Shown piece by piece: positions 2,457 to 21,722 of a DNA stretch of 64,000 bases. The notes beneath the pieces are model-generated. The model saw only the letters and a program-made list of their open reading frames with translations, was not told the origin of the DNA and did not search any database. This DNA is from an uncultured Gammaproteobacteria bacterium (GTDB taxonomy: Bacteria > Patescibacteriota > Patescibacteriia > S139-126), in contig CAZBLW010000002.1 in the NCBI GenBank assembly GCA_964493305.1, positions 142,812 to 206,811 on the forward strand, read 5' to 3'. Position 1 is the first letter of the stretch. Every line of letters starts with the position of its first letter. The translations under genes and the position numbers were made by a program.

Positions 2457-2507
2457 ACTCGGGACGCTCTGGACTCCTGGTGAGGGTTGCGTCATCCATT
2501 GTGTTGT
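2457..2507 (+). repeat. Conserved sequence upstream of recombinase copy 1 (candidate att core or operator)
   Basis: 22-bp identical core actcgggacgctctggactcct (2457..2478) plus ~25 bp of ~75% similarity. The same sequence is found at 20347..20396 upstream of recombinase copy 2. Confidence 0.6.
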
Positions 2508-3848
2508 ATGGAAAATACAACATTTACGGCTGGTTTGGGGAGTATTAAGAGGCAGACTGTCCAACCCCAGCCGACCAAAATCAAATACTGCCTCTATGCA
2601 AGGAAATCGACCGAGAGCGAGGAGCGGCAAGTCCTCTCTATTGATAGTCAAGTCAAAGAGATGATGCAGCTCGCCGAACGCGAAGGTCTTGATATCGCCG
2701 AAATCAAACGCGAATCGCATTCGGCAAAAGAAACCGGACAAAGGCCGATCTTCAATGAAATCGTTGAAGAAATCAAACAGGGAAAATTCAACGGCATTTT
2801 AACTTGGGCGCCTGACCGTATTTCCAGAAACGCCGGGGATCTTGGGAAAATAGTTGACCTGATGGATGCAAAACTTTTGCAGGAAATTCGCACTTACGGT
2901 CAGCGGTTTAGCGATTCTCCAAATGAAAAATTTTTGCTGATGATTTTAGGATCGCAGGCAAAACTCGAAAACGACAACCGAGGCATTAACGTAAAACGCG
3001 GACTGAGGACAAGAGTTGAAATGGGATTATGGCCGGGCGTAGCACCCCTTGGATATCTCAATCAAAAACTAATGGATAAAAAGTGCCAGATTATTGTTGA
3101 TCCTGCACGGTCGCCGATGGTAAAGAAAATGTTTGAAAAAGTGGCATACGAACACTACTCAGGCAGAAAGATTTACAACTGGCTCAAATTTGAGCTGAAT
3201 TTTCATACACGCGGAAACAAACCGTTAACACTGTCCGGGGTTTACCGCATACTCGATAATCCGTTTTATTACGGACCATTTGAATATCCAAAAGACAGCG
3301 GTAACTGGTACCAAGGCAAACACCAGCCATTGATTACCCAAGAGCTGTTTGAAAAAGCTCAGGCTCAGTTAAAACGCGACCAAACAGTCAGAGAGAATAA
3401 AGAATTTGCTTTTACAAAACTGTTTACCTGCGGCTACTGCGGATCAGGAATCTCGGCAGAAGAAAAATGGAAAGCACTCAAAGATGGGACATCGGCGCAT
3501 TACATTTACTACGGCTGCAGTCGGGCAAGGGATCGAAACTGCAAAAACAAATACATCCGGGAGGAAGAATTGATTGATGAACTTTTGAAGATTATAGACA
3601 AAGTGAATATCAATGAGTTGGGCATGAGGCAGAAGCTTGAGGATGAGATTAGGCGGTTCAACAAATTACAGAAAATCGTAAACGGCAGAACCGGGCAGGC
3701 ATTAGTCGAGGAAAACGAAGTGAATATACGACAATATGCAAAATATCTTTTGAAAGAAGGCAGCGTGTCAGATAAACGCGAACTGCTGGCGAACTTAAGA
3801 AGCAGATTGAATTATAAAGACAAAAAAATAACCTTGATTGAGGAATAG
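2508..3848 (+). CDS. Large serine recombinase (resolvase/integrase family)
   Basis: N-terminal YARKSTESEERQ...SIDSQ resolvase catalytic domain with the Ser nucleophile. Recombinase domain and C-terminal zinc ribbon (CGYCGS...YYGCSRARDRNC). Start placed at the ATG (MENTTF) that aligns with the paralogue's ATG. The ORF track extends the frame to 2487. Confidence 0.85.
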   Translation: MENTTFTAGLGSIKRQTVQPQPTKIKYCLYARKSTESEERQVLSIDSQVKEMMQLAEREGLDIAEIKRESHSAKETGQRPIFNEIVEEIKQGKFNGILTWAPDRISRNAGDLGKIVDLMDAKLLQEIRTYGQRFSDSPNEKFLLMILGSQAKLENDNRGINVKRGLRTRVEMGLWPGVAPLGYLNQKLMDKKCQIIVDPARSPMVKKMFEKVAYEHYSGRKIYNWLKFELNFHTRGNKPLTLSGVYRILDNPFYYGPFEYPKDSGNWYQGKHQPLITQELFEKAQAQLKRDQTVRENKEFAFTKLFTCGYCGSGISAEEKWKALKDGTSAHYIYYGCSRARDRNCKNKYIREEELIDELLKIIDKVNINELGMRQKLEDEIRRFNKLQKIVNGRTGQALVEENEVNIRQYAKYLLKEGSVSDKRELLANLRSRLNYKDKKITLIEE

Positions 3849-5172: not shown

Positions 5173-6501
5173 ATGAGCGACACAAAACTCACAATCGTGG
5201 AAGTTCCGATCAATGAACTTCGGGCATCGGAGTATAACCCAAGAAAACACTCCAAAGAGCAAGCAGATCAACTTAAAGAATCTATAAAACGATTCGGGAT
5301 GGTTGATCCAGTAATTTGTAATATTGCGCCAGACCGCAAAAACGTAATCATCGGCGGCCATTTTAGAGTTGAAGTAGCCAAAGAAATGGGCATGGTAAAT
5401 GTACCAGTGGTCTACGTTCAAATCACTGACCTAGATAAAGAAAAAGAGTTGAATCTTCGCCTAAACAAAAATGTGGGAGAATTTGATCTCGAGTTGCTAG
5501 CAGAATTTGACGAAGCATTTTTAAAAGACGTTGGATTTACCAGCGAAGATATTGATAACATATTCCCGACCGAGGAAAGTGTTGAGATATTTGATATACA
5601 AGGTGAGCTAACAAAAATAGGAATAGATAATATTACCGTTCAAAAAGGAGACATTTATGAGTTAGATGGATCAAGATTAATGTGTGGTGATTCAACCATA
5701 GAATCAGACATGAACACCCTAATGAAAGACGTTAAAGCCGACATGTGCTTTACAGATCCACCATACATTCTAGATTATCTCAAAGGTAAAACCAAACAAA
5801 AAGATGGAGTGACTACAGGTTTTGGTGCTAAAAAAAATCGTCGTTACCTTGAGACCGATGTTTTGCCGGACAACTTTACCGAATTATGGATGAAAAATAT
5901 CAGTAATATAGCCAAAGAAAATTTCGCAATTATCGTATACGAAAACTGGAAAAATATTCGCACCATTTGGAATGAAATGGAAAAGTATTGGCGAGTAAAA
6001 AATATGATTGTATGGCATTTGCCTAACAGGGTCCAAGGGTTCTCCTCTAAATATAGATTTTTCAATAAACATGATATTGCAATAACTGGAGCGACTGATA
6101 GATTTGTTCTAAATGATGAGGACGAGGACGAATTACTTGAAAACGAATACGAAACAGCCCTTTACGCAATAAGTGGTAAACCACACTGGGAATCATATGA
6201 GAAAGGCAAAAAGATTTGCCCGACCGACTTTATTGAGTTCAAGTCGGCTGATGAAAAATCGTCAGGACAAGGAGTAATTTTCGGCACCAAGCCAACCGAG
6301 ATATTAATTCCATACATTAAAGTACTTACAAAGAGAGATGATTTGATTGTAGAGCCATTCGGCGGAAGCGGATCAACATTAATCGCCTCAATTAAAATGC
6401 ATCGCCGCTGTTACCTCATGGAGAAGTGTCCTACCTACGCGCAAGTAATACTAAAACGCTGGGAAAAAGAGACTGGCAAAAAACCGATAAAGATAAACTA
6501 G
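5173..6501 (+). CDS. ParB-like nuclease domain / DNA methyltransferase fusion protein
   Basis: N-terminal ParB/Srx-like domain (EVPINELRASEYNPRKHS...VICNIAPDRKNVIIGGHFRVEVAKEMG). C-terminal methyltransferase with DPPY and FGGSGST motifs. This is the typical phage packaging-module ParB-methylase. Confidence 0.85.
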   Translation: MSDTKLTIVEVPINELRASEYNPRKHSKEQADQLKESIKRFGMVDPVICNIAPDRKNVIIGGHFRVEVAKEMGMVNVPVVYVQITDLDKEKELNLRLNKNVGEFDLELLAEFDEAFLKDVGFTSEDIDNIFPTEESVEIFDIQGELTKIGIDNITVQKGDIYELDGSRLMCGDSTIESDMNTLMKDVKADMCFTDPPYILDYLKGKTKQKDGVTTGFGAKKNRRYLETDVLPDNFTELWMKNISNIAKENFAIIVYENWKNIRTIWNEMEKYWRVKNMIVWHLPNRVQGFSSKYRFFNKHDIAITGATDRFVLNDEDEDELLENEYETALYAISGKPHWESYEKGKKICPTDFIEFKSADEKSSGQGVIFGTKPTEILIPYIKVLTKRDDLIVEPFGGSGSTLIASIKMHRRCYLMEKCPTYAQVILKRWEKETGKKPIKIN

Positions 6502-6502
6502 T

Positions 6503-7021
6503 ATGATCAGGGGCAAGATTAAACAAAAATTACTCAAAGAAATTGAAAAATTCGGCAATGTATATTTGTCTTGCCAAAAAATTGGAGTTGATAAAGCGAC
6601 TTACTATCGCTGGAAAGATAATGATGAAGAATTTAAAAAGCGAGCAGAAAGAGCCGAAGAAATTGGTCGGGAAAATATAGGTGAAGTGGCTGAGTATAGC
6701 CTTTTGCAAAACATAAAAGAAAAGAACCAACGAGCTATTGAGTTTGCTTTGGTTAATGTTTCAAAGAAATACAAACAAGACAGGACTACTAATGTCATAT
6801 TCATGCACAAAAAAGATATAATTCCAGACGTACCTCAAAAAACGATCGAGGACATGCTTGATGAGTATGCAGAAAGACGAAGGATTGAATCTATTGGCAC
6901 TGTGGGCTCAAAACACGAGATGGATAAGCCGCCAGTAATGCTTCAAGAGAATCAAACGCTTTCAGATAATCAGAACTCAAATTCTGCCATTCAGGACATG
7001 AAGCTGGATAGTAGTACTTAG
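6503..7021 (+). CDS. Terminase small subunit-like HTH protein (paralogue of 782..1150)
   Basis: KATYYRWKDNDEEFKK HTH motif in the same position relative to the ParB-methyltransferase gene. Its 3' end overlaps the convergent nuclease gene by 131 bp. Confidence 0.4.
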   Translation: MIRGKIKQKLLKEIEKFGNVYLSCQKIGVDKATYYRWKDNDEEFKKRAERAEEIGRENIGEVAEYSLLQNIKEKNQRAIEFALVNVSKKYKQDRTTNVIFMHKKDIIPDVPQKTIEDMLDEYAERRRIESIGTVGSKHEMDKPPVMLQENQTLSDNQNSNSAIQDMKLDSST

Positions 7022-7943
7022 AAGTTCGATATGACGAAGTATAATATTTGCCGGTTGTTTGAGAGCTTGCTGAAGTTTGAGACGAAGATGAATCAGTTGC
7101 ACTTGAAGTCGTGTCGCCATTGCAGGTATCAAGAGACCATAAGCCTCTCAGATTTTCTTGAGCTGATTTCTGAGCCGCCTTAAAGTTTGCTTGATATTTA
7201 TATGGCGTGTTGTATGTGTATTCGTGAGCATAACCTTGTTCAATCATGTATTTGTTGTAGAACAAACCATCTTCGCGATAAATATATGCAAGGCGACGAT
7301 TGTATTTATCAAATTCACCTTGAGTTGAATCTTTTTCAATTCTAACTTTCTTGCCGATCAATAATTCTTTAGCTTTATTTGAAGCTTCTTTACCAAAACA
7401 TTGAACTGGTTTTCTTGGATCGACTACCTCTGGAGTATCCATGCCGATTAAGCGTAATGTCTCAATCGTACCGCCTATATTCACCTTTATAGTGTCGCCA
7501 TCTACAACGCTTGAAACGGAATAATATTCATATTGTGAATTATTTTGAATTGCTGGAGTCGGAACTGTAGTTGTCTTTTCTGTTTGAGTCGTCTGAACAT
7601 TTTTAGTTTGTTGAGCTTCTGTCTTGGGTTGCTCCTCTGCTGTTGTAGTAGGATGATTTTCAATGACTACCTCAGGGTTATTGATTTGCGTTGATTCCTT
7701 GTTTTCACTTTCAACAGAAGCACTCTCATTGCTGATTGGCTTTTCTGTTTTCGGAGTAGTTATACCGATACCAAAGAAAGAAACAATTATTATTGCAGAA
7801 CAAACAATCGCAATGGTTTTCCTTTTAGGAATAATTTTAATTGCCCGTTTAAAAACAGACGGCTTAATTAATCCGACAATTAAAGAGATGATTGATAGCA
7901 ATAATGTTAATAAAAATATGTAGGTCATATGGTTGGAAAACAA
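6891..7943 (-). CDS. Membrane-anchored thermonuclease (staphylococcal nuclease/SNase-like domain) with an S/T-rich C-terminal tail
   Basis: N-terminal TM segment and T/Q-rich linker. SNase motifs VVDGDTIKV...LRLIGMDTPE...YNRRLAYIY. Confidence 0.7.
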   Translation of the reverse strand: MFSNHMTYIFLLTLLLSIISLIVGLIKPSVFKRAIKIIPKRKTIAIVCSAIIIVSFFGIGITTPKTEKPISNESASVESENKESTQINNPEVVIENHPTTTAEEQPKTEAQQTKNVQTTQTEKTTTVPTPAIQNNSQYEYYSVSSVVDGDTIKVNIGGTIETLRLIGMDTPEVVDPRKPVQCFGKEASNKAKELLIGKKVRIEKDSTQGEFDKYNRRLAYIYREDGLFYNKYMIEQGYAHEYTYNTPYKYQANFKAAQKSAQENLRGLWSLDTCNGDTTSSATDSSSSQTSASSQTTGKYYTSSYRTSKYYYPASCPEWQNLSSDYLKAFDSLEALLAAYPSRVLSPQCQ

Positions 7944-8331: not shown

Positions 8332-8958
8332 ATGAAGATAAAAATGTCTTATCAAATTACACCAACAAATGACTCAATGATACGAGTTGTTTTGAGAAAA
8401 AAATTAGAGAAAAAACACGCTAAGGATAAACACGTTAGAATTATAGATGAATTAGGATTGCATCATGGTGATGCAAGGGTTGATATTGCCGTGGTGAATG
8501 GTGTTATGCATGGATATGAAATAAAAAGTGATCAAGACACTCTATTTAGGTTACCTGAACAAATTCAAGTATATAATTCTGTGTTTGATAAAATGACACT
8601 CGTAGTTGGTAAAAGTCATTTATACGAAGCAATAAAGATTGTTCCTGATTGGTGGGGCGTCGTAGTCGCGAAAACAGATACTAATGGAAATGTTATTTTT
8701 AACACTATCAGGAAAGAGGAAACCAATAAGGCGCAAAATCAGTTGTCTGTAGCAAGACTTCTTTGGAGAGAGGAAGCCCTTAGAATTCTCGAGGATATTG
8801 ACGAAGCAAAGGGATTACGTTCCAAGCCTAGAGATTTAATTTATACTAAATTATCTACTGTTTTAGATCAGAAAACTTTAAACAAAAAAGTTAGAGAGAC
8901 AATTTTCTTTAGGACAGATTGGCGATCTGAGTCGCCGCTACTGTCATATGGTGGTTAA
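8332..8958 (+). CDS. Hypothetical protein with PD-(D/E)xK nuclease-like motif (possibly sce7726-like)
   Basis: GDARVDIAVV...GYEIKSD matches the D...ExK arrangement of the restriction-endonuclease fold. 208 aa. The family assignment is from memory and unverified. Confidence 0.4.
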   Translation: MKIKMSYQITPTNDSMIRVVLRKKLEKKHAKDKHVRIIDELGLHHGDARVDIAVVNGVMHGYEIKSDQDTLFRLPEQIQVYNSVFDKMTLVVGKSHLYEAIKIVPDWWGVVVAKTDTNGNVIFNTIRKEETNKAQNQLSVARLLWREEALRILEDIDEAKGLRSKPRDLIYTKLSTVLDQKTLNKKVRETIFFRTDWRSESPLLSYGG

Positions 8959-10027
8959 TGCCAGCCACTAACCATGTTTCCGTGCTTCCAGTGCCTTTAA
9001 TATCTACTCCTTTATTTTTTTCTTCCATATATTTAGGAAAATGTTTAGCTTTTTCGGCAATATGTTTATCGCCTGAGCTAAAATCTTCACCATAATATCG
9101 ATTGTCTTTTATTAATTCAGCGGCACTAGCTAAATATAATTCGAATTTTTGTCTTTTTCCTTTCATTATTAACCAATTTTCATCCAGTGTATATTTTATA
9201 CTTGAGGTGGGATGAAAGAATTGAGAGATTTCTTCATATATAGGATATTGAATAGTATAATCGGAAAAGGACGGCTTTCTTTGAACACTTGCATTAGAAT
9301 ATAGTTCCTTCCATTTTTTCCATTCAATACGAGGAATCAGGTTCTCTTCATCAATTTTGCATTGCGACAAGTCTTTTGGAAAAGCGCTACCAGAGAAAAT
9401 AAAAGTTCTCCATTTTAATAAATCAACAATATTTTGACTGAGTTCAAAATATTTTTTATATTTTTCCCCATCTCCCTCAAGCTCTTTTATATCCACCAAT
9501 AAGTCGATGCTGTTTTTATCTATCTTGTTTTTTGAAATAAAATCGGCAATGTCGCTATTTAATTTAGTTAAATCAGAAAAATCTGAACATACTAATCGTA
9601 AGCAAAGACCGCTTTTTATTTCATTGGCCAATGAGCAGACTGTGTCTTTTATCTCAGCATCATCATTTAAATGAACAACTGGAATAAAGATAGCCTGTTT
9701 TTTATTACCTGCCATTAAAATTGATTTTATGCTATCAATTTTTAGTTCGGTGGTGAACAATAAACTAAAATCAACAAAAATAGGACTCTTACCCCAAACT
9801 TCAATTATTCTATCCGGGATCAAGGGTAGTAGTTTTTTGAATTTTGTTACAACGCTCTCCAAAGTATCCTGGGGTTTTTGTTTCGGCATAACAAATTGGA
9901 TCAGTGGGGTAATATTTTTTTTATTTTCCTCAGCCAAACTCTCTAAAGCTCCTTGTTCGGCTCGTTTCCATTTCAATATTGGTATGTAGTGTTTCGAATT
10001 AAACATATTATTTAGTCCATTTTTCAT
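8909..10027 (-). CDS. Hypothetical protein, third gene of the higB / XRE-ImmA operon (possibly Beta-protein/sce7725-like)
   Basis: 372-aa ORF whose start overlaps the stop of the upstream peptidase gene by 20 bp. No confident motif. Its size and its adjacency to the PD-(D/E)xK protein resemble the sce7725/sce7726 pair, but that match is from memory. Confidence 0.35.
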   Translation of the reverse strand: MKNGLNNMFNSKHYIPILKWKRAEQGALESLAEENKKNITPLIQFVMPKQKPQDTLESVVTKFKKLLPLIPDRIIEVWGKSPIFVDFSLLFTTELKIDSIKSILMAGNKKQAIFIPVVHLNDDAEIKDTVCSLANEIKSGLCLRLVCSDFSDLTKLNSDIADFISKNKIDKNSIDLLVDIKELEGDGEKYKKYFELSQNIVDLLKWRTFIFSGSAFPKDLSQCKIDEENLIPRIEWKKWKELYSNASVQRKPSFSDYTIQYPIYEEISQFFHPTSSIKYTLDENWLIMKGKRQKFELYLASAAELIKDNRYYGEDFSSGDKHIAEKAKHFPKYMEEKNKGVDIKGTGSTETWLVAGINHHMTVAATQIANLS

Positions 10028-11240
10028 CAGGAAAGTAATTTCTTACTTTAGCCTCGTTGATAATTTTATTAAGATAAACGTATTTGTTGCCTTTGTGTCT
10101 AATTTGACCAGCAATAATGGCAACATGCACCCCCAGTTCTTTAGCGAGGCTATTTGCCGCCATTGAAGACGGAATTAGTCTTGCTGGACTGATTTCCCAT
10201 TTAGCTTTAGGCAACAACGATTCTTCGGCCAAGAAATCTGCCTCTTTTTCTTTTTCATCCAAATCAACTGGAGTTGTTTCTAATTCGTCATAGAACAAAC
10301 TAACATCTTGATTGTAGTGCAATGAAATATGAGCCAATTCGTGCATTAATGTAAACCAGAAATTATCTAGGCGGTCATATCTTAAAGTTAATCCAATAAT
10401 AGGATTTTCTTTGTTGACTAGAATCGCGGCTCCGTCTAAATACGTTTTAGAAAAATGAGGTTCGACCACCAAAATAATACCGATATCCTTAAGGTGTTTT
10501 TGCGCTAAAATAACCCCACCTTCTTTAGAACTTAATTTTACAAATTCTTGCATAAAATTAAGATCGACGGTGCCATCTTTGTATTTTTTTGTAGCTTTTA
10601 TTTTTTTAGCTTTTTGAATTACGCGATTTGACCAAGCGATTAACGCTCTTTTATCTGTAAGAGGAGACGATCTATAGTTTGATTTACGTAGCATTACTGC
10701 CATTTGTGGCTGAGCGCCAATTGAAGAAAAGAAATCTTTAAGCAAATCTAGTTTGCTAGATTTTTTAAGTGATTTATCACCAAAGTAGCCACGAGATTCC
10801 ATTTCTGTGACCAAACGATTATCCCAACCTTGATATTCGGAATTACTTTCTATCTCAGGTTTTCTTATTAAGACTTTTGCTGGAATTCCAAGCCCAACTT
10901 CTAAAGCCCTTACCATTTCTAGGGTGAGTGGACGTTTGCCTGAAAGTATTTCGGAGACTCTTCCTCTGCTTCCAATATATGGTATTAAGTCGGCAGGTTT
11001 AAGATCAGCTTGCTCCATTCTAAATTTAATTGCATCAATAGGATTAGGAAACGTTTCTGGCAAAGTGCGGGATTCATAGTCTTGAACGAGAGCGCTAAGC
11101 AAAGAAAGTTGTTCGCCTTCATCAGAATTAGGATCGGGGTCATGGCTTAATAGCACTTTGATTAAATCAAGCGCTTCTTTGTAGTCTGATTCAGTTTTTA
11201 TAAATTTAATTTTGCTCATATTTTTTAATTTAAATTCCAT
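10008..11240 (-). CDS. HigA-like XRE-family HTH fused to an ImmA/IrrE-family zinc metallopeptidase
   Basis: N-terminal HigA-type antitoxin HTH. C-terminal HEXXH (LMHELAHISLH) of the ImmA/IrrE (DUF955) peptidases. Overlaps the higB stop by 16 bp. Confidence 0.7.
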   Translation of the reverse strand: MEFKLKNMSKIKFIKTESDYKEALDLIKVLLSHDPDPNSDEGEQLSLLSALVQDYESRTLPETFPNPIDAIKFRMEQADLKPADLIPYIGSRGRVSEILSGKRPLTLEMVRALEVGLGIPAKVLIRKPEIESNSEYQGWDNRLVTEMESRGYFGDKSLKKSSKLDLLKDFFSSIGAQPQMAVMLRKSNYRSSPLTDKRALIAWSNRVIQKAKKIKATKKYKDGTVDLNFMQEFVKLSSKEGGVILAQKHLKDIGIILVVEPHFSKTYLDGAAILVNKENPIIGLTLRYDRLDNFWFTLMHELAHISLHYNQDVSLFYDELETTPVDLDEKEKEADFLAEESLLPKAKWEISPARLIPSSMAANSLAKELGVHVAIIAGQIRHKGNKYVYLNKIINEAKVRNYFPDEKWTK

Positions 11241-11512
11241 TTATCATATTCTTTATGAGTACCAATTTTTTCAACTAAAATTATCTTATTTTTATAATTG
11301 ACCGTGGTCAGCAACCTATACTTATTCCAACAAAAATTAAATACAACTTGCAGACCACCGACGAAGCTTGCCTTAGGATACCTCGACTTTAATTGGTGGG
11401 GAGTATCCCATTGAGCTTCCTCAACTTCCGCTTCCCATGACTCAATACTAGGCTTAGCATCGGCGTGTCTAGCTTTAAAATCGTGCAGTGTTGTTTTTCC
11501 TAGTAACTTCAT
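11225..11512 (-). CDS. higB: HigB-family type II toxin (RelE/ParE superfamily mRNA interferase)
   Basis: C-terminal ...VNYKNKIILVEKIGTHKEYDKW resembles the E. coli HigB/YgjN signature (...CYIREVMTHKEYD). 95 aa. First gene of the operon. Confidence 0.6.
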   Translation of the reverse strand: MKLLGKTTLHDFKARHADAKPSIESWEAEVEEAQWDTPHQLKSRYPKASFVGGLQVVFNFCWNKYRLLTTVNYKNKIILVEKIGTHKEYDKWNLN

Positions 11513-11595
11513 GTTTATTAATAATTACATTATGATATGCTCCCATATTGGGAATGATATACCATGTAATTAAATAAGTCAATAGGTTGCCCCAA

Positions 11596-11654: not shown

Positions 11655-12224
11655 TTATATAAACTTTATTCCGCTCCTCTTTAACTCATTTCTTATCTCA
11701 AGATAATCAGGCATCATCTTGGCGACCAAATTCCAAAACTTTTGTGAATGATTAAACTCTTTCAAGTGACAAAGCTCATGGACGATAATGTAATCGGCCA
11801 ACCTTTCGGGAAGCAGAGCAATTTTATAGTTAAAATTCAAATTACCTTTTCTTGAACAGCTACCCCAGCGAGTCTTCTGATTTTTAATATTAATCTTGTT
11901 GAATTTAAAGCCGTAAGTTTTGTTGAAATATTCAATTCGTTTTTCAGCCAAAGCCAACGCCTGATCTTTATATTCCGCGTAATCTTTTTTTGTACCTTTC
12001 GCAAACACCTGTCCAGAAATACTTTTAAAATAATCCAACTTATCAAGTATCCACTGCGATTTTCTAATTATGAATTGCTCAATGATATTCTCATTCATAT
12101 TCCGCGGAGCAGTTACCACAAAATTACCATCGCAATAGATAGCCAATCTCATTCGTCGAGCTCGCTTGCTCACCTTAAGGGTGTATTCTACTTTCTTTTT
12201 ATGTAGCTCGATTTTCTTCTTCAT
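11655..12224 (-). CDS. DUF45/YgjP-family (M48-like, WLM) zinc metallohydrolase
   Basis: HEXXH motif IVHELCHLKEFNHS. This family is commonly encoded next to type I hsdR genes. Gene start abuts the hsdR stop. Confidence 0.7.
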   Translation of the reverse strand: MKKKIELHKKKVEYTLKVSKRARRMRLAIYCDGNFVVTAPRNMNENIIEQFIIRKSQWILDKLDYFKSISGQVFAKGTKKDYAEYKDQALALAEKRIEYFNKTYGFKFNKINIKNQKTRWGSCSRKGNLNFNYKIALLPERLADYIIVHELCHLKEFNHSQKFWNLVAKMMPDYLEIRNELKRSGIKFI

Positions 12225-12226
12225 AA

Positions 12227-15139
12227 TTAAAATCGCTTAATCACTACATCCACTAATCTATTAAGATATTTGTGGAAATCAGAAACTTTTATTTTATCTT
12301 TGTAGTCTTTGAGAATTAATTCTTGCAGAGTTCGTTTTGCTTCTTTCAAAAATTCTTCTCTCTTAGATGAATCTTGCCAGTTTTCATCGAGAACATCTTC
12401 AAGTCGTGCGGCCATTTCTTTTACAAATTCCTTAACAATATCCTTATCAGATTCGCTGATAAATTCATCAGAGATTACAAATAGGCCGTATTCGCGGAGA
12501 GTGTAGCCCAATTCTTTAGCTTCTTCGGTCTTTGTCTTTATATCGTTTAGAAGTTCATAGTAGCGCTTTATTCTTTCTGCCAAATCAATCTGGTGCTTTT
12601 CAAATTCAACACGGATCGCGATAAGTCGCTCACTAAATTTCTTAAATGCCGGATGAGTATCAATGTTAATTGAAATCTCACGCTTTAACATCTTTTCAAG
12701 ATTAAGAGCCTTCTCTTCTTCGGGAAGTTTATCAAGCTTATTCAAAGTAGCTAAGTCGTGGATATTTAGTTCTCGGAAGTTTTTAGTGATACCTTCGTAG
12801 TCAATCTTCTGTTGAATTAAGCTCTTTATTTTCTCTCCGTATTCAGCAAGAGAAAAGGCGTCTACATCATCAATTTGGAATTCTTTGACGAACGCTAAAT
12901 AAAAACTGGTGATCCATTCAAACTTGCGTAGATATTCCATCAAGAATGGATCGGGTGAAAGAATCTCAAAAAGCATTTTTAGTCTGCCATATTTGTCTTT
13001 GAAGTATTGCTGTTTGCTTTGATTTTCAATAAATATCTTCAAGCATCGGCGTAAATTATCGATTGACGGATCTTCAATATTAACCCCGACGAACAATTCC
13101 ATTATTTCGCCAATAACTTTGGAGAATTCTTCTTTAAGGCGGTTGATATCCACCATCGCACTATCAACCACACTCTCATCAAAATTAAGAGCGTCGTAAA
13201 GATTTTTAGTCACGCCGTAGTAATCAATAATCTTGCCGCATCCTTTGTTTGGAAATACTCGATTTGTACGGGCGATCGCTTGAAGTAGGTTGTGATCACG
13301 AAGCGGTTTGTCCAAATACATCACTTGTTCAACTGGAGCATCAAAACCAGTTAAAAGCATGTCGCAGACAAGTAAGAATTTAAGTGGATGATTTGGATCT
13401 TTGAATTGATCAATAATTTTCTCTCGCTTCTGTTTATTAGTATTATATTTTTTCAAATCGTCGCTTTCGCTGTTCGGATCGCCTGGGGAGTAGACAACCT
13501 CTAACCATTCAGCAGGGACAAGCTTATCAAAAAGTTGTTTGTATTTAGCTGTGGCTTCGCGGTCATAACAAACCACTTGAGCCTTGAATCCGTTTGGCAA
13601 AACATAAAGCTTGTAATGCTCAATAATATCTTGAGCAACCGCCTCCATTCTTTTATCTAACTTAACAAGAGCTTCTTTTTTGCCGTATTTTTTAGTGAGT
13701 AATTCTTTTTGCTTGTCATTCAAGTCAACAGTTAATTCGTTGAATTGCTTGTCTACTTTTTCCTCATCAATAAAAAATTTGGAGAGACGAGCTTCGTATG
13801 TAACCGGCAAAGTAGCACCATCATCAATAGCCTGCTGAATAGAATAGTAATCAAGATATCGTTCGCCCTCTTCGCCAAAGTTTCTGTGAGTATTGAGGGT
13901 TAGCTTATCAATCGGCGTTCCTGTAAACCCAAAGAAGAATGCATCTTTAAAAGCATTACGCATCTTAATGGCCGAAATGCCTTCGTTATCTCGGTGGGCT
14001 TCATCAGAAAGCACAATAACATTGCCATCAATATTTTCTATATCTTCCAATTCGCTAAATTTCTGAATGGTTGAAATAAAGATACCTCGGTCGGCTCCTT
14101 TGATTTTCTTTTCAAGGTCTTTGCGTGATTCTATTCTGACGAGATTTTGTCCGCCCCAGCTTTCAAATTCTTCGTACACCTGATCATCAAGATCAATACG
14201 GTCAATCAAAATAAACACCTTAGGATTTTTTAGTTCTGGATTATAGCGAAGTTTCCAAGCAGTGAAAAACATTGTTAAGGTTTTACCAGATCCCTGAGTG
14301 TGCCAAATCAAACCTTTCTTTCTCTCGCCATCCTGAACACGAGCCACTATTTTATTGGCCGCGTAAAATTGCTGGTATCTAGTGATTTTCTTTGTGACTC
14401 CATCTTTCTTTTTCTCAAAAACTATAAAGTTTTTAATAAGATCAAGAATCTGCTTTTGATCCAGCAAAAAGAAAAGCGTGGAATCAAGTTCTTCTTCAAA
14501 TTTCTTCTCTTTTACCTGAGGGTCTTCACGCCACGCAAGGAAGTACTGTTTTGGGGAATAAGTCGTTCCATAAACGGTTTTAAGGCCATCGGTGGCGATA
14601 TTTAGACAGTTGGGTAGGAATAACTTAGGTGCTACTTTCTCATATCGCTTTAGCTGGTCAATAGCGTTCTCGAAACTGACACTGCTTGAAGCGGTGGGGC
14701 TTTTGGCCTCTATGTCACAAACCGGCAGACCATTAAGGAAAATCATCACATCAGGTCGAATGTTTTCAGTTACCCCTTCAAAATAGAATTGATTGGTAAC
14801 AACAAAGTGATTATTTTCAGGATTATCAAAATCAACAATCTTATAGTCACGGAAGTTGCCAGTGTTTGGATCTTTCAAATTGATACCATTTCGCGTCGCG
14901 AGCAAGAAAGCTTCATTTGTATCAAGCTTCTTAACTTCGCGCACCACACTTTGTGCAACAGTATCATCAACATCGTTTATTTTCTTAACTGCTTCTAAGA
15001 GATGGGTGGTGATAATAAACTCGGTTTCAAAAGCGCGAAGTTTGGAAAATTCTTCGGCCGGAATGTATTCATAGCCGAGCTTTTCTCGTATGAATTTTAT
15101 TATGTGATATTCAATTGTGTATTGTTCGTTAAATTTCAT
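12227..15139 (-). CDS. hsdR: Type I restriction enzyme R subunit (HsdR)
   Basis: SF2 helicase motifs HTQGSGKT (Walker A), DEAHR and QAIARTNR. 970 aa, typical HsdR size. Confidence 0.9.
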   Translation of the reverse strand: MKFNEQYTIEYHIIKFIREKLGYEYIPAEEFSKLRAFETEFIITTHLLEAVKKINDVDDTVAQSVVREVKKLDTNEAFLLATRNGINLKDPNTGNFRDYKIVDFDNPENNHFVVTNQFYFEGVTENIRPDVMIFLNGLPVCDIEAKSPTASSSVSFENAIDQLKRYEKVAPKLFLPNCLNIATDGLKTVYGTTYSPKQYFLAWREDPQVKEKKFEEELDSTLFFLLDQKQILDLIKNFIVFEKKKDGVTKKITRYQQFYAANKIVARVQDGERKKGLIWHTQGSGKTLTMFFTAWKLRYNPELKNPKVFILIDRIDLDDQVYEEFESWGGQNLVRIESRKDLEKKIKGADRGIFISTIQKFSELEDIENIDGNVIVLSDEAHRDNEGISAIKMRNAFKDAFFFGFTGTPIDKLTLNTHRNFGEEGERYLDYYSIQQAIDDGATLPVTYEARLSKFFIDEEKVDKQFNELTVDLNDKQKELLTKKYGKKEALVKLDKRMEAVAQDIIEHYKLYVLPNGFKAQVVCYDREATAKYKQLFDKLVPAEWLEVVYSPGDPNSESDDLKKYNTNKQKREKIIDQFKDPNHPLKFLLVCDMLLTGFDAPVEQVMYLDKPLRDHNLLQAIARTNRVFPNKGCGKIIDYYGVTKNLYDALNFDESVVDSAMVDINRLKEEFSKVIGEIMELFVGVNIEDPSIDNLRRCLKIFIENQSKQQYFKDKYGRLKMLFEILSPDPFLMEYLRKFEWITSFYLAFVKEFQIDDVDAFSLAEYGEKIKSLIQQKIDYEGITKNFRELNIHDLATLNKLDKLPEEEKALNLEKMLKREISINIDTHPAFKKFSERLIAIRVEFEKHQIDLAERIKRYYELLNDIKTKTEEAKELGYTLREYGLFVISDEFISESDKDIVKEFVKEMAARLEDVLDENWQDSSKREEFLKEAKRTLQELILKDYKDKIKVSDFHKYLNRLVDVVIKRF

Positions 15140-17322
15140 ATATTACTAATTCCTTCTAATTTCTTATAATGAAGCGGATCCAAGATTTTTACCAACTGAA
15201 ATGCTTCTTGAATTCGTTGATGGGCATTCGTTAATATTGAGTCATCAATTGATTCGGGATCGATGAATCCATGGGACCCATGATTGATAAAACGATACAT
15301 TTCCAGAGGATTAGCGCTAAAGGGGTTAGTCTCTTTTTCAGTAGTTTTAGTGGCTGACGAATATGCGCTTTCAAGAGTAGACCGCAAATCTCCAGTCGTA
15401 GAAAATTTGAATTCCAGAAAAGTTTCTAACCAGCGACGTAATAAATTAACAACCAAATGAGCATCTTCTAGATCACATGTATCCTTGTGTTTTGCCAAGA
15501 CGCTAAAAACATAATAATAATCTGACCTATGATCTCTGAGTAAGGGGTGTATGGCTTCAATAATGCATCCATTGCTTGTAGCCGCGAAACTAAACAATCT
15601 AACATCGCCACTTCCTATTTTTGATCTGAAATGCTCTCTTAGGTGGCCTAAAAAGTCTAAGTTGTGTGTTAATACAAAATATTGTCGCCCAGCATGATTT
15701 TTTATTTCATTTACAATAATTGAAAAAATTTGAAATATAGCTTGCTTATCTAAACTTGATACAGGATCATCAATCACAACAACACCGTCATCGGGAAGTT
15801 TATTTTGAGCATCGTTAATCGAATAAATGAAATAAGCCAGTGCAATAAAATTCTTCTCTCCTTCACTTAAACTAGAAAACGCACAGTTTGTTTCATCTCT
15901 TTTTAAGGCATATCCCTTACCATCATCAGCATCGGTAATTTCTATTTTTCTATAGGGGAATACGACTTTAAAGAGACGATTTAATGCTTGAGCTGGTTCA
16001 AGTGTATTTTTTACTTTTTGCTTTAATTCTTTAACTTGTGTATCTAATTTAGAAATCTCAAGAGTTATGGCTGACCTTTGATCTGTGGCTTTTGCAAAAA
16101 GCTCCTTTGCTCTGGCATATTCTTCGTATTGCTGTGCAACGAAATGTGTCTCAATAGCATAAGCAACAGAGGTAGCATCAGTTGAAGTTGGGTTTGTCAT
16201 TGGGGTTAATTTTGTTATATCGAGAGTATATGCAGTTTTTATCACGGAGATGGAAGTTCTCTTCTCTTTCAGGATCACTGCTAAGGCATCAAATATAGCT
16301 CTAACAAAATCAACATTTTGCTGTTGAGATTTGGATAATGAATCTAATTTAGCAAAACTGGTGGTATATCCTTCAATAATCTTTAAATATTCATCAATTG
16401 AGTTTATTGTCTTAACGACTTCGTCTGAAAAATGCTTGATTAGCTCTTCTGTGTTTGAAATATCAGAATTACAAAATAAACATTTCGCGAGTGGTTTTTC
16501 TTGATTAAAATGCAAACTGACACCCTGTTTAATCCAGCCAGTTTGGGTTTCATTTAGATCATCTATTCTTTTTGAGTGGACTTGTACTGGTTGTGATCCT
16601 AACCCATTATTTATATTTTCAATATTATCGATAAGCCATTTAGCGGCATTAGCTATTTCATTGTCATTTTTCGCCAACCTTTCAGTATTCATTAACTGAC
16701 CTTTTAATGAATCAACGTCTGCGCGTATTAATTCGGCGTGACTTTTAATTTTTCCATCAGCTATCTTTTTCTCTATATCTGCGATCCGCTTCTCAAAATC
16801 AGTTTTTGAATAACTGGCATAAGTACCAGCACCCACGAGTTGTTTCTTTATACTGTTTATTCCACCGACTTCTTTAATTACAACTGCGGTAGCGCTAGCA
16901 ATGTCATCGTGTTTTGTTGGTAGAATTATTTTATTTAATTCATCCTTTTTATCTTTTAATTTTTGTTCTTCAGCGTCGTAGCTCACCGCTTCTTTGCCAG
17001 CAAAAAAGATATAAGGAATTGTTGAACTTCCACGCAACGTTTCTTCAATATAGTTGCCATTAAAAATTCTTATATTGTTTTTTGTTAAATTTAAATCACA
17101 GGTATCGGTAATTTGCGAGGATTCAGTTTTAATCTTAAAGGTACAGCTATTTTCAATAATTCCATTTTCAAGACTACGCAACACATTTGAAAAAGTAGTT
17201 TTACCTGATCCGTTCCATCCAAAAAGTAAATTAACCCCATCAGCAAAATCAACCAAGGTTGGACCCCAGGAATAATTATGAAATCTTGCATGATTAAGTT
17301 TTTCGACTTTTTGAATCTTCAT
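15136..17322 (-). CDS. RloC/PrrC-like ABC-type ATPase (candidate anticodon nuclease) embedded in the type I R-M operon
   Basis: Walker A GWNGSGKTT, Walker B/D-loop VVVIDDPVSSLD and H-loop THN. A ~450-aa coiled-coil-like insert contains a CxxC motif (CLFCNSD), which is zinc-hook-like as in RloC. Its position between hsdS and hsdR matches prr locus architecture. C-terminal R-x3-E and His residues are consistent with an ACNase domain. Confidence 0.5.
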   Translation of the reverse strand: MKIQKVEKLNHARFHNYSWGPTLVDFADGVNLLFGWNGSGKTTFSNVLRSLENGIIENSCTFKIKTESSQITDTCDLNLTKNNIRIFNGNYIEETLRGSSTIPYIFFAGKEAVSYDAEEQKLKDKKDELNKIILPTKHDDIASATAVVIKEVGGINSIKKQLVGAGTYASYSKTDFEKRIADIEKKIADGKIKSHAELIRADVDSLKGQLMNTERLAKNDNEIANAAKWLIDNIENINNGLGSQPVQVHSKRIDDLNETQTGWIKQGVSLHFNQEKPLAKCLFCNSDISNTEELIKHFSDEVVKTINSIDEYLKIIEGYTTSFAKLDSLSKSQQQNVDFVRAIFDALAVILKEKRTSISVIKTAYTLDITKLTPMTNPTSTDATSVAYAIETHFVAQQYEEYARAKELFAKATDQRSAITLEISKLDTQVKELKQKVKNTLEPAQALNRLFKVVFPYRKIEITDADDGKGYALKRDETNCAFSSLSEGEKNFIALAYFIYSINDAQNKLPDDGVVVIDDPVSSLDKQAIFQIFSIIVNEIKNHAGRQYFVLTHNLDFLGHLREHFRSKIGSGDVRLFSFAATSNGCIIEAIHPLLRDHRSDYYYVFSVLAKHKDTCDLEDAHLVVNLLRRWLETFLEFKFSTTGDLRSTLESAYSSATKTTEKETNPFSANPLEMYRFINHGSHGFIDPESIDDSILTNAHQRIQEAFQLVKILDPLHYKKLEGISNI

Positions 17323-20346: not shown

Positions 20347-20396
20347 ACTCGGGACGCTCTGGACTCCTTTGGGGATTGGCGTCATTCATTAGATAT
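20347..20396 (+). repeat. Conserved sequence upstream of recombinase copy 2 (second copy of 2457..2507)
   Basis: Identical 22-mer actcgggacgctctggactcct at 20347..20368. Confidence 0.6.
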
Positions 20397-21722
20397 ATGA
20401 AAATAACAGCCCCAAAGGGCTATGAGGTGGCCCAAATACAGCCTCAAACGGTCAAAGTTAGGTATTGCCTGTATGCCCGTAAATCAACAGAATCGGAGGA
20501 AAGACAGGTACTTTCCATTGATTCGCAGATAAAAGAGATGCTTCAGCTCGCTGAAAGAGAGAATTTGGAGGTGGTTTGTATGAAGCGTGAGAGTCATTCA
20601 GCCAAGGAAACTGGACAAAGACCGGTCTTTAACGAGATCATTGAAGAAATACGAGTCAAGAAGTATAACGCTATCCTCACCTGGGCACCCGATCGTATTT
20701 CAAGAAATGCCGGGGACTTAGGAAAGATTGTGGATTTGATGGATGCAGGACTTCTACAAGAAATCAGAACCTACGGACAAAAGTTTTCAAACAATCCAAA
20801 TGAAAAATTCTTGCTGATGATTCTTGGATCACAGGCAAAACTTGAAAATGATAACAGAGGCGTAAATGTAAAACGCGGACTACGAACAAGAGTGGAAATG
20901 GGATTGTGGCCAGGAGTGGCACCGCTCGGATATTTGAATCAAAACTTAATGGATAAGAAATGCCAAGTGATTATTGATCCGCAACGTGCGTCGACAATTA
21001 AGAAAATGTTTGAGAAAGTGGCGTATGAACATTACTCAGGTAGAAAACTATATAATTGGTTACGCCATGAACTTAATTTCTATACCCGAGGAAACAAACC
21101 ATTAACACTGAGTGGAATATATAGAATCTTGGATAATCACTTCTATTACGGAACGTTTGAATCGCCGAAAGGTAGTGGTAATTGGTATCAAGGAAAACAC
21201 GCACCGATCATAACACAAGAATTATTTGAAAAAGCTCAAGCGCAACTAAAACGAGATAATATACAGCGCGAAAATAAAGAATTTGCCTTTACTAAACTAT
21301 TCACTTGCGGATACTGTGGAAGTGGAATATCTGCCGAAGAAAAATGGAAACAACTCAAAGATGGAACGCACGCAAAATACATCTACTACTCTTGTAGTAG
21401 AGCGAGAGATAGAAACTGTAAAAATCACTATATACGAGAAGAAGATTTAATAACCGAATTACTTAAAATACTGGATAAAGTAAACATTAATGAGTTGGGT
21501 ATGAGACAAAAATTGGAAGATGAGATAGCGAGATTCAATATTTTTCAAAGATCGGTACTTGGTGCAACGGAAAAGATTAAAAATAACCAAGATACTGATA
21601 TACGAAACTTCGCCAAGTATATTTTGAAAGAAGGTACAGTTGGCGAGAAAAGAGAGCTACTGGCGAATCTGAGATCGAGAATAATTTACAAAGACAAACA
21701 ACTTACGCTGATTGAGGAATAA
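20397..21722 (+). CDS. Large serine recombinase (paralogue of 2508..3848)
   Basis: The same domain set as copy 1: resolvase domain, recombinase domain and zinc ribbon. About 80% aa identity. ATG start chosen by alignment with copy 1. The ORF-track start at 20376 is a TTG. Confidence 0.85.
   Translation: MKITAPKGYEVAQIQPQTVKVRYCLYARKSTESEERQVLSIDSQIKEMLQLAERENLEVVCMKRESHSAKETGQRPVFNEIIEEIRVKKYNAILTWAPDRISRNAGDLGKIVDLMDAGLLQEIRTYGQKFSNNPNEKFLLMILGSQAKLENDNRGVNVKRGLRTRVEMGLWPGVAPLGYLNQNLMDKKCQVIIDPQRASTIKKMFEKVAYEHYSGRKLYNWLRHELNFYTRGNKPLTLSGIYRILDNHFYYGTFESPKGSGNWYQGKHAPIITQELFEKAQAQLKRDNIQRENKEFAFTKLFTCGYCGSGISAEEKWKQLKDGTHAKYIYYSCSRARDRNCKNHYIREEDLITELLKILDKVNINELGMRQKLEDEIARFNIFQRSVLGATEKIKNNQDTDIRNFAKYILKEGTVGEKRELLANLRSRIIYKDKQLTLIEE

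Follow-up and report, generated by a model that had tools for sequence, protein, structure and literature searches.

The window examined here is a stretch of 64,000 nucleotides (nt) of DNA (contig CAZBLW010000002.1 of assembly GCA_964493305.1, positions 142,812 to 206,811 of the forward strand) from an uncultured bacterium deposited as a member of the Gammaproteobacteria and placed by GTDB in the Patescibacteriota, and the locus in question is a cluster of four genes, termed A to D, between positions 8332 and 11512. Gene A (11225..11512, minus strand, 95 amino acids (aa)) was identified as encoding a HigB-family RelE-type toxin, gene B (10008..11240, minus strand, 410 aa) a HigA-like Xre helix-turn-helix (HTH) domain fused to an ImmA/IrrE M78 metallopeptidase, and gene C (8909..10027, minus strand, 372 aa) a β-family protein (Pfam Beta_protein), with each of the three matching its respective PADLOC model (PD-Lambda-2_A, PD-Lambda-2_B and PD-Lambda-2_C) for the anti-phage system PD-λ-2. 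Gene D (8332..8958, plus strand, 208 aa) is convergent with C and encodes a predicted PD-(D/E)xK nuclease of the sce7726 / Phage_P4_cII family. These four open reading frames (ORFs) had been proposed at the same coordinates in a preceding sequence-only reading and all four were confirmed; as each of them strongly matches a family, they can be regarded as genes and not chance ORFs. That reading had also suggested hidden Markov model searches for the 372-aa and 208-aa proteins, which returned Beta_protein for C and sce7726 / Phage_P4_cII for D.

The product of A matched the Pfam family HigB_toxin (PF09907) at 5e-24 (84.7 bits against a cut-off of 27) and PADLOC PD-Lambda-2_A at 9.6e-36 (residues 1-93 of 94), in agreement with the earlier HigB-like toxin call for this 95-aa ORF, and could be aligned to the solved E. 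coli HigB structures 5IFG and 5YCL. It was found to retain the HigB signature N59, Y65-R66, G84-T-H86-K-E88-Y89, with residues N59, R66, H86, E88 and Y89 matched by identical residues in the alignment to 5IFG and at least 92% conserved among 77 sequences. No assignments of catalytic roles to residues of PF09907 HigB proteins were found in the accessible literature, and conservation relative to the solved protein was used instead. The signature was intact at every locus of the window's clade, and the conserved residues on which the sequence-only reading had made its HigB call depend were thus found to be present. From these residues A looks to be a catalytically competent HigB.

The product of B matched PADLOC PD-Lambda-2_B at 1.1e-142, with its residues 8-406 lying on model positions 1-399 of 402, and Pfam Peptidase_M78 at 33.4 bits (cut-off 22), besides a weak match to HTH_3. 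A profile of the B family aligned with the HigA antitoxin structure 5IFG_B at 5.6e-14, where residues 7-115 cover the whole antitoxin, placing the HigA-like HTH region at approximately residues 7-120. The HEXXH motif of the peptidase takes the form HELAH (residues 300-304), of which H300, E301 and H304 are invariant in 27 homologues, as is H308, and weak PADLOC matches of this domain to capP and RmrA were also recorded. The description of B as a HigA-type HTH fused to an ImmA/IrrE HEXXH peptidase therefore holds, with both domains in one 410-aa polypeptide and no separate Xre gene in the cassette. In the ImmR/ImmA, DdrO/IrrE and CapH/CapP switches, an M78 HEXXH peptidase works with a separate Xre-type HTH repressor, whereas at this locus the two are joined in one polypeptide instead of two proteins. 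Together, A and B resemble HigB-HigA of E. coli K-12 (YgjN-YgjM, 5IFG), in that A is a PF09907 HigB with its signature, HigA in its entirety is matched by the first ~120 residues of B and the toxin gene comes first; they differ from it in that the antitoxin-like domain is fused to ~290 more residues including M78, and in that the pair sits in a four-gene cassette.

The product of C matched Pfam Beta_protein at 1e-58 (199.9 bits against a cut-off of 27), PADLOC PD-Lambda-2_C at 1.3e-39 and the PADLOC model 'beta' at 1.7e-8, and showed 21% identity over its full length to β of satellite phage P4 (BLASTP, 1e-10). Its structure is predicted to be a (β/α)8 triosephosphate isomerase (TIM) barrel. 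The sequence-only reading had offered Beta-protein/sce7725 for this protein; the Beta-protein part was upheld by Pfam, while sce7725 (NCBIfam NF033831) was dropped, as no NCBIfam match was obtained at E <= 1. P4 β was likewise without an NCBIfam match at E <= 1. C is not a housekeeping protein, an identity that would have spoken against the proposal of the sequence-only reading.

The product of D exceeded the cut-off of NCBIfam sce7726_fam NF033832 (174.4 bits against 70), confirming the sce7726 assignment suggested earlier for the 208-aa protein, and also matched the PADLOC model 'cll' (5.2e-29) and the newer Pfam family PF26915 'Phage_P4_cII'. The 'beta' and 'cll' models are those of the gop-β-cII system of P4, and BLASTP of D against P4 cII gave 33% identity over 112 aa (6e-16). 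A PD-(D/E)xK-like D...ExK motif had been noted in this protein, and its residues D51...E63-x-K65 proved invariant in 44 close and 18 distant D homologues; the predicted fold, a PD-(D/E)xK (restriction-endonuclease-like) α/β core, agrees with it. In the known sce7725/sce7726 pair, the sce7726 member has sce7725 as its partner, whereas the partner here is a Pfam Beta_protein.

Genes A, B and C lie on one strand with stop and start codons that overlap or are 1-5 nt apart. If the longest ORFs are taken, the overlap measures 16 nt between A and B and 20 nt between B and C, bearing out the tight minus-strand operon with overlapping stop and start codons that had been described. The true start of both B and C is, however, suggested to be the eighth codon (ATG at 11219 for B and at 10006 for C), on the basis of homologue lengths (403-404 aa for B and 361-365 aa for C), of the PADLOC B model beginning at B residue 8 and of an independent gene call in which C has 365 aa. 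With these starts, spacers of 5 nt (A/B) and 1 nt (B/C) would replace the overlaps and the operon would still be tightly coupled. For D, an alternative start at 8344 gives a protein of 204 aa, as in several database entries. A promoter-like site (TTGACT-17-TATCAT, 11554..11582, minus strand, 10/12 matches) situated ~40 nt upstream of the higB-like start is a candidate promoter for the operon, and the HigA-type HTH may have its operator in this region. At the other end, C and D overlap convergently by 50 nt (8909..8958), a dual-coding stretch which interlocks the C-terminal coding sequence of D with the tail of C and leaves no room for an intergenic terminator; a sequence scan for terminator-like sites between C and D found none.

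Comparison with PD-λ-2 of E. coli

The sequence-only reading had presented the three minus-strand genes as an uncharacterised candidate defence module. Their matches to all three PADLOC models support a defence module and identify it, as judged from sequence, as the known anti-phage system PD-λ-2 rather than an uncharacterised one, the locus having every sequence-level feature of that system (the A, B and C components in a co-directional operon). PD-λ-2 was recovered from E. coli ECOR42 by functional selection and protects against λvir by abortive infection (Vassallo 2022, PMC9519451). Its authors described the components as a HigB-like protein, a HigA-like Xre HTH protein with a peptidase, and a third protein 'related to a P4 phage antitoxin', and found that B alone is toxic, that A rescues from this toxicity, and that C is needed for defence against λvir and not for neutralisation (PMC9519451). 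The defence-conferring ECOR42 insert reaches only ~390 base pairs past the three genes, indicating that these three suffice in the E. coli lineage.

A locus of Marinobacter sediminum (L081) gave 623 bits with the PADLOC B model and 491 bits with the C model, far above the scores of the window, and so belongs to the clade of this prototype. It was found to be without D, and a DRT9-type reverse transcriptase (8407-9981, minus strand, PADLOC 4e-213) converges on its β gene at the place of the cII-like gene. The DNA of this locus led to three chromosomal PD-λ-2 loci of E. coli, annotated as HigB, ImmA/IrrE and 'beta family protein', against which the D profile gave nothing at E <= 10. These E. coli loci (L084, NZ_CP180604; L085, NZ_CP107720; L086, NZ_CP029371) are situated in small integrase-bearing islands beside ffs (signal recognition particle RNA), ssrA (transfer-messenger RNA) or a thiamine pyrophosphate riboswitch, and two of them adjoin SIR2-family genes.

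The prototype and the locus of the window are alike in gene families, order and orientation, in the tightness of the operon and in their occurrence in mobile or defence islands, and each of the three PADLOC models is matched by the window's genes along its full length. Identity between their B proteins is only ~40-45%, and two further differences were identified. Members of the prototype clade, represented by Marinobacter and by the three genomes of E. coli, are without the cII-like gene, with unrelated genes (for example SIR2, DRT9 or hypothetical ones) following C, whereas the locus here has D. Furthermore, the four A proteins of the prototype clade lack R66 and the whole of the C-terminal THxEY, while A of the window keeps both; N59, R66 and G-T-H86-x-E88-Y89 are common to the A proteins of the window's clade, to plasmid copies consisting of A and B only and to HigB of E. 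coli K-12. The behaviour of the prototype, in which A is non-toxic and an antidote to B, would fit a HigB that has degenerated in sequence. No description of a cII-like fourth gene in PD-λ-2 was found in the searchable literature. What is new here is therefore this conserved fourth gene, which links two separately catalogued defence systems, the three-gene system itself being already known.

Conservation of the convergent fourth gene

Relatives of the cassette were surveyed at 80 loci encoding B homologues in species-representative genomes, for which ORFs were called and iterative profiles were built for A, B, C and D. These 80 loci are the best-scoring of at least 567 that were found with patterns from the window's clade, and are biased towards that clade. 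They come from Patescibacteria, Planctomycetota, Omnitrophota, Acidobacteriota, Bacteroidota, Nitrospirota, Chloroflexota, Gammaproteobacteria and others, with the closest relatives of the cassette in Patescibacteria and other metagenome-assembled genomes. Anchored on B, the 64 loci with enough flanking sequence contained A in 63 cases, C in 61 and D in 58, so that the synteny search proposed earlier did find a conserved neighbourhood, with the full four-gene set in 58/64 loci. D accompanies C in 58/61 loci, and in every genomic locus having D it lies on the opposite strand and converges on C. The stop and start codons of A, B and C are 1-20 nt apart in nearly all loci.

At the exceptions L068, L077 and L081, a D hidden by divergence was considered and ruled out, the convergent ORFs there being an IS3 transposase, the DRT9 reverse transcriptase and an ORF without a family. 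At three other loci (L032, L069 and L073) the β ORF is split or shortened with D intact, which may reflect decay of the copy or faulty assembly.

The C/D overlap was found to be exactly 50 nt in 39/66 related loci, within a range of 26-113 nt. It is also the best-conserved stretch, with a column identity of 81% compared to 55-69% in the flanking coding sequence (36 non-redundant loci with the 50-nt overlap), and conservation is raised at all three codon positions, as expected if both strands encode conserved protein tails. A GC hairpin within the overlap (GGCGA-N6-TCGCC) was considered as a bidirectional terminator or RNA element and rejected, as there is no T-run on either strand and the pairing is broken without compensation at other loci. 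With this reading ruled out, the conservation of the overlap is attributed to dual coding of protein, which leaves the two genes physically interlocked, since moving either would truncate the other. That the D ORFs could be untranslated antisense artefacts is spoken against by their conserved catalytic residues and confident predicted fold.

Within the four-gene clade, pairwise distances of the four proteins were found to be correlated (r 0.45-0.77), with C the most divergent and B the least, which indicates that the cassette moves as one unit. A mirror-tree comparison did not reveal extra co-evolution of C and D beyond that of the rest of the cassette (partial r = 0.03 controlling for B). The four genes are thus inherited as a unit in a widespread clade covering Patescibacteria, Planctomycetota, Omnitrophota, Acidobacteriota, Bacteroidota and some Proteobacteria.

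A close comparison for C and D together is gop-β-cII of P4, which is reportedly the subject of work by Ghisotti dating from 1990. In the P4 reference genome, gop and β lie on the plus strand and cII on the minus strand, tail to tail. The convergent arrangement had been called atypical in the sequence-only reading, a remark that is wrong given that P4 itself has it. The system, named 'Rst_gop_beta_cll' in DefenseFinder (Rousset 2022), gives protection from λ and P1 (PMC9122126), with a phage accessory gene serving as its trigger (bioRxiv 10.1101/2023.04.06.535777); according to the literature on these relatives, β neutralises the toxin Gop in P4. Both loci have convergent β and cII homologues and a toxin-type gene directly upstream of β in the operon, with Gop of P4 being replaced here by HigB and the HTH-peptidase fusion. 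A phmmer search with P4 Gop of all ORFs of the window and of the 80 related loci returned only P4 itself. In addition, P4 cII has a C-terminal extension and, at 264 aa, exceeds D in length, and a 27-nt terminator stands between it and β, whereas the two genes overlap here.

Convergent, overlapping sce7726/β pairs without HigB, Xre-M78 or Gop were identified on an E. coli phage-plasmid, on Rhodococcus and Bacillus cereus plasmids, on a plasmid of Acinetobacter in which an IS30 element interrupts β, and in mycobacteriophage Mycofy1. On an Agrobacterium plasmid, the pair is preceded by the gene of a B-like Xre protein and by a small gene of another kind, and phage Mx4 encodes a D homologue without β. 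When viral contigs were scanned using a broad D alignment, 80 loci were obtained, a partly redundant set in which 78 had room for a partner gene; in 77/78 of these (49/50 when non-redundant) a β gene was found that converges on D and overlaps its 3' end, with a median overlap of 41 nt, and A, B and Gop were found at none of the 80 scanned loci. These stand-alone pairs thus consist of the same two families, convergent and overlapping as in the window, and differ in having no HigB or Xre-M78 gene upstream. Taken with P4, the 58/64 genomic loci and the 77/78 viral loci make convergence the rule for these genes.

The reverse situation, A and B without β, was observed on Acinetobacter and Pseudoalteromonas plasmids and beside restriction-modification (R-M) genes. 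Such HigB/Xre-M78 pairs directly adjoin type I R-M or other restriction genes in several genomes, as well as on a plasmid of Pseudoalteromonas (L078:2210-4051, L074:3324-6215, L083:1-3632), and the A-B module may also be attached to other defence systems. Phage-borne PD-λ-2 was sought using tblastn of B against phage genomes, which gave only partial matches to the HTH or the peptidase and no phage-borne copy of the system. Overall, β/cII looks like a common core to which either Gop or HigB/Xre-M78 modules have been joined. No paper treating β/cII (β with sce7726) as a unit, or PF14350, was found in the searchable literature, the families being named in databases.

Proposed function and alternative readings

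The locus is probably a four-gene anti-phage cassette of the abortive-infection type, in which the 3' end of a PD-λ-2 operon and that of a convergent P4-cII-like nuclease gene share a dual-coding overlap. In an uninfected cell, the HigA-like N-terminal domain of B would bind and silence HigB (A) and repress the operon promoter, while β (C) would keep the effector or effectors in check, as β does Gop in P4. Upon infection a phage product would be sensed, most likely by β, given that no other component evolves as fast and that the E. coli system cannot defend without it. The switch would then be the M78 domain of B, whose cleavage, in cis or in trans, would lift the HigA-type neutralisation; ImmA, IrrE and CapP are proteolytic switches of this kind that act on separate repressors. 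HigB, once freed, would cleave ribosome-bound mRNA, and the cII-like nuclease would add a second, nucleic-acid-degrading activity. Because of the convergent overlap, the mRNAs of C and D are complementary at their 3' ends, and expression of the two genes may be coupled by antisense pairing or transcriptional interference.

Several points weigh against this interpretation. The functional data on PD-λ-2 are those of the E. coli prototype, which differs by the absence of D and by an altered HigB. As the prototype defends without a cII-like gene, D is dispensable in at least one lineage, and as its HigB signature is lost and that of the window is intact, the rule that B is toxic and A its antidote may not transfer to this locus. 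A sensor role for β is proposed from analogy and from its higher divergence. The figure of 58/64 loci describes the window's clade and not all PD-λ-2 systems, owing to the manner in which the 80 loci were selected. Lastly, promoter-like sites are no commoner in the region overall than in shuffled sequence, and the site at 11554..11582 is a consensus match only.

The main rival explanation is that two autonomous modules stand side by side: a β/cII defence or toxin-antitoxin-like cassette, with the nuclease as effector and the TIM barrel as inhibitor or sensor, and an independent type II toxin-antitoxin pair, HigB/HigA-M78, which stabilises or regulates the island. This is considered rather unlikely, although each half is known by itself, β/cII being without A, B and Gop in 77/78 viral loci and on the E. 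coli, Rhodococcus and Bacillus plasmids described above, and A-B being without β on the Acinetobacter and Pseudoalteromonas plasmids and beside R-M genes; P4, moreover, joins the β/cII core to another front module, Gop. On the other hand, A, B and C are translationally coupled, the four-gene set is kept in 58/64 loci and its members co-vary. Defence in E. coli requires C in addition to A and B, which ties β functionally to A-B there.

The cassette could alternatively serve a mobile element (an integrative element or a prophage) in addiction or in lysogeny control, in which case protection against phage would be a secondary effect. Two large serine recombinase genes (2487-3848 and 20376-21722, both plus strand), 81% identical, bracket an island of ~16.5 kb comprising a ParB-methyltransferase gene, a staphylococcal nuclease (SNase) gene, a LOOT RNA, the four-gene cassette, a YgjP gene and a type I R-M system, and a terminase large-subunit gene (1062-2426) lies just upstream of the first recombinase. 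This bracketed island may represent two tandem integrative elements or a prophage remnant. Homologous recombinases were found near 11/80 related loci, the E. coli copies of PD-λ-2 are in integrase-bearing islands at ssrA and ffs, and β/cII is abundant in phages and in the non-essential region of P4, all of which favour such a role. Both studied relatives, however, protect against phage when cloned off their element, and the neighbours of the cassette are defence genes (type I R-M, the PDC-S06/AAA_13 ATPase, DNA methyltransferase and SNase), making this explanation improbable as an alternative to defence. A role in a mobile element and host immunity are in any case compatible and not mutually exclusive.

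That D is merely a passenger, an unrelated solitary nuclease gene abutting a three-gene PD-λ-2 operon, can be practically dismissed: the PD-λ-2 loci of E. coli and Marinobacter do work, or at least exist, without D, and phage Mx4 has its D homologue without β, but the association of D with C in 58/61 genomic and 77/78 viral loci, always convergent, effectively refutes chance adjacency, and the dual-coding overlap is conserved above its flanks.

A wider proposal, which goes beyond the four-gene cassette and is put forward tentatively as less likely than not, is that β/cII (a TIM barrel and a PD-(D/E)xK nuclease) constitutes a widespread immunity core of two genes that is autonomous and is shared by phages, satellites, plasmids and bacteria. 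On this view, PD-λ-2 and gop-β-cII would be versions of it with different front-ends, the E. coli prototype a reduced derivative lacking the nuclease and the HigB catalytic residues, and the antisense overlap a regulatory device coupling both genes. At present PD-λ-2 and gop-β-cII are catalogued apart, and detection tools count the cII gene only with Gop. If the four-gene form is common outside enterobacteria and β/cII is a shared core, then annotations miss one component as well as many stand-alone phage β/cII pairs. It would also follow that mechanistic work on the E. coli prototype used an atypical member, with a degenerate HigB and no nuclease, and the mechanism would become directly testable, with the nuclease as the obvious candidate effector and the TIM-barrel β as candidate sensor or inhibitor. 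The advance is an incremental one, concerning the classification and dissection of defence systems and not a new kind of biology.

The surrounding island

The type I R-M system that had been reported next to the cassette is real, and the genes hsdM, hsdS, an AAA_13 ATPase gene, hsdR and a YgjP-like peptidase gene were identified between positions 11655 and 20286. Its adjacency as a conserved feature of the cassette was ruled out, as it was found in only 5/80 related loci. The AAA_13 ATPase (15136-17322, minus strand, 728 aa) is encoded between hsdS and hsdR and matched the PADLOC candidate PDC-S06 at 9e-96, with a weak match to PrrC (1e-9); in the classical prr locus, the position between hsdS and hsdR is that of the PrrC anticodon nuclease.

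On the other side of the cassette, two candidate defence or mobile-element genes were identified. The first (5173-6501, plus strand) encodes a ParB_N domain fused to an N6/N4 DNA methyltransferase. The second (6891-7943, minus strand) encodes a 350-aa protein with an N-terminal membrane or linker region and a staphylococcal-nuclease domain, matching PADLOC C3a212 'SNc+LTD' at 4e-44. The GC-rich gap between this SNase gene and D contains a LOOT RNA (Rfam RF03000, 8008-8130, minus strand, 71.2 bits against a gathering threshold of 46.4), followed by a terminator-like hairpin (7967-7947, minus strand). The LOOT motif has been reported from uncultivated candidate phyla, a distribution that fits the Patescibacteria-like relatives of the cassette.

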